A DNA stretch of 64,000 nt from an uncultured delta proteobacterium (GTDB taxonomy: Bacteria > Myxococcota_A > Polyangia > Haliangiales > Haliangiaceae), in assembly GCA_963848295.1 (NCBI GenBank), contig CAWKDB010000011.1, forward strand, positions 400,963-464,962. The letters are read 5' to 3'. Below are positions 40,201 through 42,300 of the stretch, one piece after another (position 1 is the stretch's first letter; every line of letters begins with the position of its first letter). The notes below the pieces were generated by a model that saw nothing but the letters and a program-made list of their open reading frames with translations, was not told where the DNA came from and ran no database searches. Both the position numbers and the translations under genes were made by a program.

Positions 40201-40439
40201 CATCGGCATCGGCATCGGCATCGGCATCGGCATCGGCATCGGCATCGGCATCGGCATCGGCATCGGCATCGGCATCGGCATCGGCATCGATCGCATCGCG
40301 CATCGGCATCGGCATCGGCATCGGCATCGGCATCGCCATCGCCATCGGCATCGGCATCGGCATCGGCATCGGCATCGGCATCGGCAGCGGCATCGGCATC
40401 GGCAGCGGCAACGGCGTCGGCAGCGGCAGCGGCAGCGGC
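40201..40439. repeat. Hexanucleotide microsatellite: (CATCGG)14 perfect, then interrupted CATCGG/CATCGC/CAGCGG variants
   Basis: Read directly. Begins 6 nt after the stop at 40195. Confidence 0.95.
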
Positions 40440-40487
40440 TTGTTTGACTCCCGCAAAGGCTGCCGGATTCAGCGCCGGCGCGCGCGC

Positions 40488-40808
40488 TCACCGCGTGAGC
40501 CTGAACAGCATCGCGCGAACGCGATCGAGTGGCGCCTCGATCGCGGCGAAGTCCTCGGCGGTGATGTAACCGCGCGCCTTCGCGATGAGCAGCGCGGTCG
40601 ACAGCTCGCGCGCGCTGCCGAAGGCGCGGCGGAACATGTCGGGCCGATCGAGGCCGGCGCGTGCGCTCGCTTCGGCGATGTTGAGGGCCACGCTCTCGGC
40701 GGCGCGGCCGATCTCGTCGGCGAGCGACTTGCGGCGAGCCCGAAGCTTCGGCTCGATCGGAGCGAGCTGTTCGAGGACGGTGAGCGACTGAGCGAGGACG
40801 TCGAGCAT
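40488..40808 (-). CDS. Four-helix-bundle protein (23S rRNA IVS protein / Avd family), copy 1
   Basis: Start trimmed to ATG 40808. [41 protein letters not shown] fits the family pattern (Q/E)xxRAxxSIxxNIAEG..GSxxE. Confidence 0.8.
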   Translation of the reverse strand: MLDVLAQSLTVLEQLAPIEPKLRARRKSLADEIGRAAESVALNIAEASARAGLDRPDMFRRAFGSARELSTALLIAKARGYITAEDFAAIEAPLDRVRAMLFRLTR

Positions 40809-40847
40809 TGGCGTGGCCTTTCGTGGATGAGCGGCGCACCGATTCGC

Positions 40848-41015
40848 CGGGGCCGTCTCGCCCGTCGCGCCGCACTCGCGCCGGCGCCGTGACGAGCGCG
40901 GGCACAAATCTCCGCACGCGTCGGTCGATCCAACTCTGCGGCGGTCGTTCGCACGCGTCGGTGGCCTCGGCGCTCGGCGCGGCGCTGGCGCGAAGCGGCG
41001 CAGGGCGACGGCCCC
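40848..41015 (-). other. Extended hairpin (about 38 bp of stem) directly upstream of four-helix-bundle copy 1
   Basis: Arms at 40979-41015 and 40848-40889 pair with one mismatch and a few bulges. Homologous to the element at 41230-41405. Confidence 0.6.
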
Positions 41016-41041
41016 GGCGATCGGAAGCCGCGAGGGCCGAG

Positions 41042-41198
41042 AGGTGGCGACGGCGACGGCATCGGCTTCGGCGTCGGCGGCGGCAGCGGCGTCGGCGGCG
41101 GCAGCGGCGGCGGCAGCGGCGTCGGCGGCGGCAGCGGCAGCGGCTCCGGCTCCGGCTCCGGCTCCGGCTCCGGCTCCGGCTCCGGCTCCGGCTCCGGA
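41042..41198. repeat. GGC-phased microsatellite: GGCGGC/GGCAGC/GGCGTC variants followed by (GGCTCC)9
   Basis: Read directly. Lies exactly between the two divergent cassettes. Confidence 0.9.
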
Positions 41199-41229
41199 AC
41201 TCGACGCTCACTCGCTCGCGCCGATGAGC

Positions 41230-41405
41230 GGAACGTCTCTCTCGCCCTGCGCCGCTTCGCGCGGGTCCCGCGCCGAGCGCCGAGTGCGCCGGCGTCTGCG
41301 ATCGACCGCCGCGGAGTTGATCGGCCGGCGATTGCGGTGGTCAGCGCCCGCGCTCGTCACGGGACCCGCGCGAGTGCGGCGCGACGGGCGAGAGAGAGAC
41401 GTTCC
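41230..41405 (+). other. Extended hairpin (about 41 bp of stem) directly upstream of four-helix-bundle copy 2
   Basis: GGAACGTCTCTCTCGCCCTGCGCCGCTTCGCGCGGGTCCCG pairs with CGGGACCCGCGCGAGTGCGGCGCGACGGGCGAGAGAGAGACGTTCC. GGAGGA lies 7 nt before ATG 41438. Confidence 0.6.
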
Positions 41406-41437
41406 TACCCATCGGCCACTCACTTCGGAGGATCATC

Positions 41438-41761
41438 ATGTCGTTCTACGCCCTCGACTTCGCCCTCGCCGTCCTGCAGCAGCTCGCCCCGATCGAGGCC
41501 AAGGTCCGCCGCACGCGCAAGTCACTCGCCGACGAGATCGTCCGCGCCGGCGAGAGCATCGCCCTCAACGTCAGCGAAGGCCGCATGCGCGTCGGGCTCG
41601 ATCGCCCGGACTTCTTCCGGCGAGCAGCCGGCAGCGCCAGCGAGCTCACCACCGCCCTACTGATCGCGCGCGCGCGAGGCATCATCACCACCGAGGACTT
41701 CGCGGCGGTCGACGAGCCGCTCGACCGCGTCCGCGCGATCCTGTGGCGGCTCACGCACTGA
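41438..41761 (+). CDS. Four-helix-bundle protein (23S rRNA IVS protein / Avd family), copy 2
   Basis: About 60-65% identical to copy 1 by eye. Has [41 protein letters not shown]. Confidence 0.8.
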
Positions 41762-41825
41762 GCGCTTGCGCCGGCCGCCGCGCCGGCGAAACCGATTTCG
41801 GCACCCTTCGCCGGGCCCAACGAAC

Positions 41826-42300
41826 GGATACGGATCCGGCAGCGGATCCGGCAGCGGATCCGGCAGCGGATCCGGCAGCGGATCCGGCAGCGGATCCGGC
41901 AGCGGATCCGGCAGCGGATCCGGCAGCGGATCCGGCAGCGGATCCGGCAGCGGATCCGGCAGCGGATCCGGCAGCGGATCCGGCAGCGGATCCGGCAGCG
42001 GATCCGGCAGCGGATCCGGCAGCGGATCCGGCAGCGGATCCGGCAGCGGATCCGGCGGCGGCGGCGGATACGGCAGCGGATACGGCAGCGGATACGGCGG
42101 CGGCAGCGGATACGGCGGCGGCAGCGGATACGGCAGCGGATACGGCAGCGGATACGGCGGCGGCAGCGGATACGGCGGCGGCAGCGGATACGGCAGCGGA
42201 TCCGGCACCCGCGGCGGCAGCGGATACGGCACCCGCGGCGGCAGCGGATACGGCAGCGGATACCGGCGGCGGCGGCGGATACGGCACCCGCGACGGCAGC
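41826..42300. repeat. Dodecamer microsatellite: (GGATCCGGCAGC)18 perfect, then higher-order GGATACGGCAGC / GGATACGGCGGCGGCAGC units
   Basis: Read directly. 18 identical copies span 41832-42047 (each with a GGATCC site), followed by a 60-nt super-repeat to about 42185 and degenerate units to about 42300. Confidence 0.95.

Follow-up and report, generated by a model that had tools for sequence, protein, structure and literature searches.

The four-helix-bundle (4HB) protein family PF05635/TIGR02436 is very widespread in bacteria and, to our knowledge, no function is known for it outside the diversity-generating retroelements (DGRs). In Coxiella burnetii, the intervening sequence (IVS) of the 23S rRNA carries the open reading frame (ORF) of the family member S23p; GACAGAT heptamers, whose number varies among strains, lie just upstream of this ORF, RNase III cuts at the first repeat, and the IVS is regarded as a selfish element (PMC4990558). 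Here, we analyse a locus of similar composition in a 64,000-nucleotide stretch (hereafter the window) of contig CAWKDB010000011.1, assembly GCA_963848295.1, from an uncultured delta proteobacterium of the order Haliangiales. In the window, two divergent PF05635 genes are bracketed and separated by three blocks of hexamer repeats, an arrangement that an earlier reading made from the sequence alone had taken for a contingency (phase-variable) locus. With moderate confidence, we consider these tracts to be non-coding (NNNCGG)n satellites tied to a dispersed, IVS-like selfish cassette of the Kofleriaceae, prone to recombination and not promoter switches.

The blocks were read from the sequence of positions 39600-43000 by means of Tandem Repeats Finder and counts of exact runs, and copy numbers are given as assembled. 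Block 1 (40201..40439, 239 bp overall; all blocks are given on the plus strand) starts with an exact (CATCGG)14 run at 40201-40284, which is followed by an irregular piece of 16 nucleotides (nt) and by variants up to 40439 (CATCGG/CATCGC/CAGCGG/CAACGG/CGTCGG). Block 2 (41042..41198) consists of GGCNNC variants starting at 41043/41046 (GGCGAC/GGCATC/GGCTTC/GGCGTC/GGCGGC/GGCAGC), which lead into an exact (GGCTCC)9 run at 41142-41195. Block 3 (41826..42309) has GGATAC at 41826 and then an exact (GGATCCGGCAGC)18 run at 41832-42047; a 60-nt higher-order repeat built of GGATAC/GGCAGC/GGCGGC units follows, in which 42060-42119 equals 42120-42179 save for one base, and degenerate units go on to about 42309, reaching the stop codon of a FecR gene. 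As the sequence-only reading had stated, the blocks are real, lie at these coordinates, total about 0.87 kb and occupy all the non-genic space between the four genes of the region, as the summed lengths and the gene coordinates confirm. The start and content of block 3 were also read correctly, while its end, placed at 42300, is at about 42309. Repeat runs of such length cannot be attained by chance. The units of the window, which has a GC content of 69%, lie head to tail and have no unique spacers of the kind found in CRISPR arrays.

Both genes between the blocks belong to a composite unit. The 4HB gene A (40488..40808, minus strand, 106 aa; PF05635 E=2.9e-14, TIGR02436 E=2.8e-13) is preceded by a leader hairpin of about 185 nt, which is a near-perfect stem-loop (40841..41024, minus strand; minimum free energy (MFE) -152.2 kcal/mol, z = -6.2; nhmmer E=6e-26). 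In the same way, the 4HB gene B (41438..41761, plus strand, 107 aa; PF05635/TIGR02436, PDB 2GSC E=3e-4) follows a leader hairpin of about 195 nt (41220..41416, plus strand; MFE -152.3 kcal/mol, z = -6.7; nhmmer E=9e-26), whose basal stem covaries relative to that of cassette A. The two proteins are 68% identical, and the short, conserved 3' flank of cassette A (40440..40487, minus strand) aligns with the short 3' flank of cassette B (41762..41825, plus strand). Block 1 is the array at the 3' side of cassette A, and block 2 is the upstream array of cassette A, now common to B. The two cassettes form an inverted duplication that takes in about 200 nt upstream of each ORF, and about 155 alignment columns of this upstream segment are conserved better than the coding sequence. 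Among 37 homologous leaders, compensatory changes were found in 22 of the 33 predicted pairs of the hairpin. Since the hairpin precedes every ORF of this 4HB subfamily and occurs nowhere else in 725 kb of related sequence, the cassette unit consists of a hairpin of about 190 nt, a Shine-Dalgarno site and the PF05635 ORF. In paralogous copies, homology ends at or just past the stop codon, which gives a unit of about 555 bp. The leader stem, with about 85 bp and few mismatches, is a plausible predicted substrate of RNase III. In the hairpin alignment (A7), nearly all the variation is from one Watson-Crick pair to another. One pair, at columns 26/175, is C-G or U-G (17 vs. 16 sequences) and can form only in the sense-strand RNA, which hints that the leader hairpin acts as a sense RNA. 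Inverted cassette pairs, either convergent or divergent, are frequent (about nine cases among the 56 cassettes described below: loci L007, L015, L025, L031, L033, L045, L050, L051 and the A/B pair of the window).

The comparison with the IVS shows several points of likeness. Both elements have a 4HB ORF of PF05635 (the window encodes a PF05635/S23p four-helix-bundle protein), a long stem of the kind that is cut by RNase III, and upstream tandem repeats whose number varies among strains. The Kofleriaceae element, however, lies outside rRNA: its neighbours in the window are protein-coding, neither a tRNA nor an rRNA match was found in the window, which rules out an insertion in helix 25 or 45 of the 23S rRNA, and Rfam gave nothing meaningful at gathering or E-value thresholds. 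Moreover, its stem is formed locally, by a hairpin ahead of the ORF, whereas the stem of the IVS encloses the ORF; no terminal inverted repeats enclose the ORFs of the window. Finally, its repeats are hexamers, present in 10-130 units, placed outside the hairpin and in direct orientation on both sides of the cassette. The Kofleriaceae cassettes are a variant of the S23p/IVS-like selfish elements.

The association of arrays and cassettes was examined in two sets of relatives. A first scan, with one genome per species, returned 18 loci, all from Kofleriaceae/Haliangiales metagenome-assembled genomes and with 57-76% amino-acid identity. Nearly all of them carry a large hexamer array of the GCCGNN type 220-340 nt upstream of the ORF, and four contigs stop about 200 nt upstream of the ORF, where the array would start. 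A scan of metagenomes gave 38 further cassettes, for a pooled set of 56, and independently repeated the same picture. Upstream sequence of at least 400 nt was available for 38 cassettes, and 35 of these have an array that stops 131-374 nt (median 288) ahead of the ORF; eight contigs begin inside the upstream array, and in 18 more the sequence breaks off less than 400 nt from the ORF on its upstream side. In terms of coverage, arrays make up 16.2% of the bases within 1 kb of 4HB genes as compared to 1.3% elsewhere (331 kb). Co-occurrence of the repeats with four-helix-bundle genes, which had been proposed as a check on the locus, is therefore confirmed in both sample sets, and the repeats are not scattered without a link to these genes. 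Downstream arrays are less regular (16 of 53 cassettes, about 30%), so that the full bracketing seen in the window is a richer version of a rule that holds mainly upstream. Solo arrays of the same (NNNCGG)n grammar occur away from any hairpin, and no solo hairpin beside a solo array was found in the 725 kb.

All the units of the window fit a single grammar, GGN-NNC, as had been noted from the sequence, and this equals NNNCGG in the other register. The entropy of heterogeneous arrays was analysed with no motif assumed. Three consecutive positions, C-G-G, show 0 bits of entropy, and the remaining three show 1-1.9 bits. In block 2 (24 units of 7 types), CGGC has 0 bits and the two other positions 1.5-1.7 bits; in the array of L008, CGG is invariant over 85 units of 20 distinct types. 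Neutral decay would hit all six positions, yet CGG is invariant; thus the arrays are (NNNCGG)n with a constrained core, and not neutral. Also the polarity is biased. On the sense strand of the cassette, arrays read CCG (C-rich) in 27 of 35 cases and CGG in three. Two of the exceptions examined, cassette B of the window and cassette 1 of L033, are partners in inverted pairs lying within arrays of uniform polarity. The direction of replication was rejected as the cause of the polarity, as the array at 34.6 kb has the opposite polarity just 6 kb off. This fourth array of the window (34583-34774; CCGATG/CCGGTG/CCGTAC in 24-nt higher-order units) has the grammar of blocks 1-3 and lies where a tetratricopeptide repeat (TPR) gene meets a gene for an M15 peptidase; neither a cassette nor a hairpin is near. 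In the relative L019 (about 90% identical), the array is shorter and degenerate, and gene calling there assigned it to the C-terminal tail of the TPR protein. A rut site for Rho, which would be C-rich RNA, was rejected since the window units hold about as much C as G, and a Chi-like motif (AGCGG within the commonest unit) would be in the inactive orientation relative to a break at the hairpin.

The GGN-NNC grammar reads Gly-X, the arrays of the window are free of stop codons in all frames, and the product of an ORF at 41766-42335 would be (GS)n(GY)n. It might then be supposed that the arrays code for low-complexity peptides, Gly-X or rich in Ala/Ser/Pro, or else, given how difficult perfect repeats are to assemble, that they are assembly artefacts. 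We regard both suppositions as scarcely credible. In fact, the register shifts by a number of bases not divisible by three in 14 of 22 arrays, and in the window there is one +1 shift in block 1 and one shift in block 3, so the objection to coding that the sequence-only reading had drawn from phase breaks is well founded, and the single continuous frame of a Gly-rich coding repeat of the PGRS (polymorphic GC-rich repetitive sequence) type is missing. Furthermore, the second codon would always end in C and never in G, a constancy that codon bias does not explain, and units such as GGTTGC would yield runs of Gly-Cys. As for an artefact, dozens of assemblies made independently, from long as well as short reads, have the arrays in the same position.

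The history of the locus was followed by retrieving orthologues of the flanking genes from L019, L020, L021, L105, L023 and L024. On the left, the window has a C45/AAT-family acyltransferase gene with a TPR tail (38492..40195, plus strand; Pfam PF03417 and TPR, orthologues of 567 aa), whose stop codon at 40195 lies 5 nt ahead of block 1; on the right, it has the gene for a FecR-type anti-sigma factor (42317..43798, minus strand, Pfam; stop codon at 42317) with its extracytoplasmic function (ECF) sigma partner at 43795-44448. In L019 (about 90% nucleotide identity) and in the more distant L020, L021 and L105, the AAT gene is directly followed by a convergent kinase gene. In L024, which comes from the same sample as L019, FecR is followed by an outer membrane protein (OMP) gene. 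Neither a cassette nor an array is present at the AAT or FecR sites of these five loci. The homology to the window stops at 40207 on the left (L019) and at 42309 on the right (L024), and the cassette-free relatives keep the ancestral gene order; hence the block at 40201-42309 is the exact junction of a rearrangement, which brought the AAT and FecR/ECF-sigma loci together. These data fit a single inversion, as one that had its ends at the two ancestral sites would yield the convergent AAT/FecR arrangement.

L023, a Nanopore contig with 88-90% nucleotide identity to the window, has the same junction and a single cassette, which is the orthologue of A. The equivalent of block 1 measures 86 bp there (GTCGGC/TCCGGC/TTCGGC units) as compared to 239 bp in the window, and a single continuous array of 300 bp stands where the window has blocks 2 and 3 (152+479 bp). 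In the direction of FecR, this array shows GGCGAC/GGCTGC, then GGCTCC, then GGATCC/GGATAC, which is the order found in blocks 2 and 3. Cassette B is absent from L023; in the window, it lies within what is continuous array in L023, with the perfect runs (GGCTCC)9 and (GGATCCGGCAGC)18 abutting it on either side. As the identity between B and A is only about 75%, B did not arise from A by recent copying. Units and lengths thus differ at the same positions between close relatives; the tracts are not invariant and turn over fast, and the slippage or recombination that had been deduced from the long perfect runs is supported. In the orthologous pair L010/L011, the order of unit types is kept and the counts are not, a pattern that slippage on an inherited array would produce. 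The cassette-free relatives have junction 7-mers that match array units. CATCGGC is present in L019 directly past the AAT stop codon, and GAACCGGCGCCG is present in L024 past the FecR stop codon and is similar to the end of the L023 array, (AACCGGC)n, AACCGGC being the microhomology at the L024 junction. One way to interpret these 7-mers is as microhomology that served when the element was joined.

Contingency loci of Neisseria and Haemophilus have short tracts inside an ORF or within the core promoter. The window shares with them long, perfect repeats of short units near genes, with a number that varies among strains, and the proposal was that the number of units in block 2 alters the promoter geometry and switches the divergent 4HB gene or genes on and off. 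A length-variable tract does lie between two divergent genes, its copy number varies among related strains, and Coxiella strains vary in the number of heptamers upstream of the S23p ORF (PMC4990558). Nevertheless, we hold this explanation to be very improbable. Upstream of both genes, 237-240 nt that include the conserved hairpin separate the end of the array from the ATG, and the arrays thus lie neither in an ORF nor in a core promoter; a scan for promoters and terminators found no sigma-70-type promoter in or beside the arrays, and no terminator. The description of block 2 as lying in the divergent promoter region therefore holds in that the genes are divergent, whereas the promoter was only inferred from this layout. 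In addition, the tracts measure 150-480 bp in the window, running to hundreds of bases, and the same arrays occur upstream of single cassettes with no divergent partner and downstream of genes. The divergent arrangement stems from cassette B and is a lineage-specific outcome of its arrival; in the close relative L023, which lacks B, the array lies between the cassette and the 3' end of FecR, with no divergent partner, so that the contingency layout finds no support.

The satellite reading, which we prefer, would imply the following course of events. The arrays would grow and shrink through replication slippage and unequal exchange, and they would act at the DNA level as portable homology or microhomology. 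Through them, cassettes would be gained, paired in inverted orientation and recombined, with rearrangement of the chromosome as a consequence. As the CGG core is constrained, something appears to read the arrays, and the reader may be a protein or a repair/recombination enzyme; the arrays would not serve as on/off promoter spacers for the 4HB genes.

A simpler possibility is that the hairpin stalls replication or is cut and repaired, and that slippage during repair grows functionless microsatellites in the nearest free DNA. It would explain why arrays start 20-140 nt from the base of the hairpin, on the side away from the ORF, why their lengths and units are hypervariable, and why 7-mers matching the arrays are present at the cassette-free sites of relatives. 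It also agrees with L018, where the hairpin has given way to an array of 824 bp (9046-9869) that reaches to within 132 nt of a truncated 4HB gene, as though the satellite had overrun a cassette in decay. The invariant core and the biased polarity make such a by-product less likely, and we rate it as rather unlikely overall. Decay should strike the six positions alike, whereas CGG stays constant over up to 85 heterogeneous units, a polarity bias of 27:3 would not be expected, and solo arrays that follow this grammar are present where there is no hairpin.

Repeats also bracket more distant members of the family. Genes for PF05635 proteins with 32-45% identity, many of them from low-GC bacteria, are enclosed by inverted repeats at E<1e-3 in 22 of 39 cases as compared to one of 90 control positions. 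In many of these genes, the arms consist of tandem 7-9-nt units with a constant GTCA core and abut the start codon. In L082, a high-GC contig, the arms are 85 nt of hexamers of the GGAGCC type and are 95% complementary. Judged from sequence comparison, this bracketing corresponds to the architecture of the 23S rRNA IVS that bears S23p, and the inverted arrays probably form RNA stems. In four low-GC contigs (L064, L069, L075 and L081; 32-43% GC), a 4HB gene bracketed by inverted GTCA-core arrays lies directly upstream of a gene with a ScpB-like start (IPHIE.LIFA), the latter recognised by eye alone. The arrangement suggests an insertion site that is recurrent or conserved.

These observations bear on the main rival of the satellite reading, in which the ring-shaped 4HB protein itself would be the reader of the arrays. 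The Bacillus protein TRAP is a ring-shaped homo-oligomer that reads (G/U)AG repeats in RNA, that is, triplets with free spacers of 2-3 nt. By analogy only, a constant triplet and a free spacer would account for a pattern in which CGG never varies and three positions are free; CGG arrays, as RNA or single-stranded DNA (ssDNA), would be bound by the ring of the cassette's protein or by a host factor, and this binding would control the expression, processing or propagation of the cassette. The unit itself, with an invariant core of 3 nt and a free spacer of 3 nt, agrees with reiterated binding sites, and so do the fixed polarity and position beside the gene and the arrays with cores of their own that flank PF05635 genes in other phyla, such as the GTCA units at the start codon. 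Among the members of the family are the pentameric toroid of S23p (2GSC; PMC4990558) and Avd, a protein that works together with nucleic acid and reverse transcriptase (PMC6182149, PMC10053308); the Coxiella IVS has its variable heptamers just upstream of the S23p ORF (PMC4990558). Still, cores common within a lineage could just reflect the common descent of the whole element, in the window more than 230 nt separate the arrays from the ORF, the arrays greatly exceed the length that a single ring could cover, the fold of TRAP is unrelated, and the S23p protein of Coxiella is apparently not made (PMC4990558). We therefore regard reiterated-site binding as a possible but tentative explanation.

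Some results weigh against the satellite reading as set out above. As a downstream array is present in only 16 of 53 cassettes, simple excision and integration by way of two directly oriented flanking arrays cannot account for movement in general. The reciprocal junction (kinase/OMP) of the presumed inversion did not emerge: in all the loci that the search with the kinase gene brought up, the arrangement is the ancestral one. For the junction 7-mers, it is just as plausible that they were seeds from which the arrays grew in place. Lastly, because the arrays of the distant relatives are inverted and probably form RNA stems, they point to a role in RNA that may perhaps apply here too, so that the Kofleriaceae arrays may act at the RNA level.

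Two other systems show a partial likeness. Repetitive extragenic palindromic (REP) units are palindromes of 20-40 nt linked to RAYT (Y1) transposases. As with REP units and bacterial interspersed mosaic elements (BIMEs), intergenic repeats are here found together with a Y1/HUH transposase, since a Y1_Tnp gene lies within about 1 kb of a cassette at three loci; the units of the present arrays, however, are head-to-tail, non-palindromic hexamers, and a RAYT gene is near only three of the 56 cassettes, with none in the window. Altogether, the 725 kb contain four IS200-like Y1 (RAYT-type) transposase genes: L006 435-1073 (Pfam PF01797, E=3e-5) and its homologues L008 8755-9516, L017 10825-11610 (minus strand) and L010 17882-19537 (minus strand). 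Three of the four are within about 1 kb of a cassette. The Y1 gene of L006 is flanked by inverted CGG/CCG arrays of about 190 nt that are 83% complementary. The DGR protein Avd belongs to the same superfamily and is a PF05635-like pentameric four-helix bundle (PMC6182149, PMC10053308). The tandem arrays described here, however, do not constitute a template/variable repeat pair; no reverse transcriptase was found beside the cassettes in the window or in the gene tables of the related loci, where a template/variable repeat pair was not searched for. A further repeat of the window, (TCGGCTTTG)8.7 with a 12-mer repeat at 54233-54372, is coding and unrelated to the CGG satellites; it encodes (ADK)n/PADK in the linker of a protein of 234 aa (54000-54704, minus strand).

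Apart from the Coxiella heptamers, a search of the full-text literature brought up no account of PF05635 genes with flanking repeat arrays. Taking the phyla together, it is conceivable, although we put it forward as a speculative proposal, that PF05635/TIGR02436 genes are the cargo of unrecognised small selfish cassettes, with the 23S rRNA IVS and Avd as special cases. Their tandem arrays would have a lineage-specific core (CGG in Kofleriaceae, GTCA in the low-GC metagenome contigs with 32-43% GC, GACAGAT in the Coxiella IVS), which the ring protein would read as RNA or ssDNA in the manner of TRAP, thereby controlling the processing and propagation of the cassette. If true, such a module of PF05635 gene and array across phyla would be of high interest. 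For the Kofleriaceae, the arrays mark sites of cassette gain and loss and a rearrangement junction, and the satellites explain why short-read assemblies of soil myxobacterial genomes break precisely at these loci. They also call for caution, in that a long bacterial microsatellite near a gene need not be a phase-variation switch. For the family as a whole, the fact that PF05635 members come with core-constrained tandem arrays gives a testable handle on its function.

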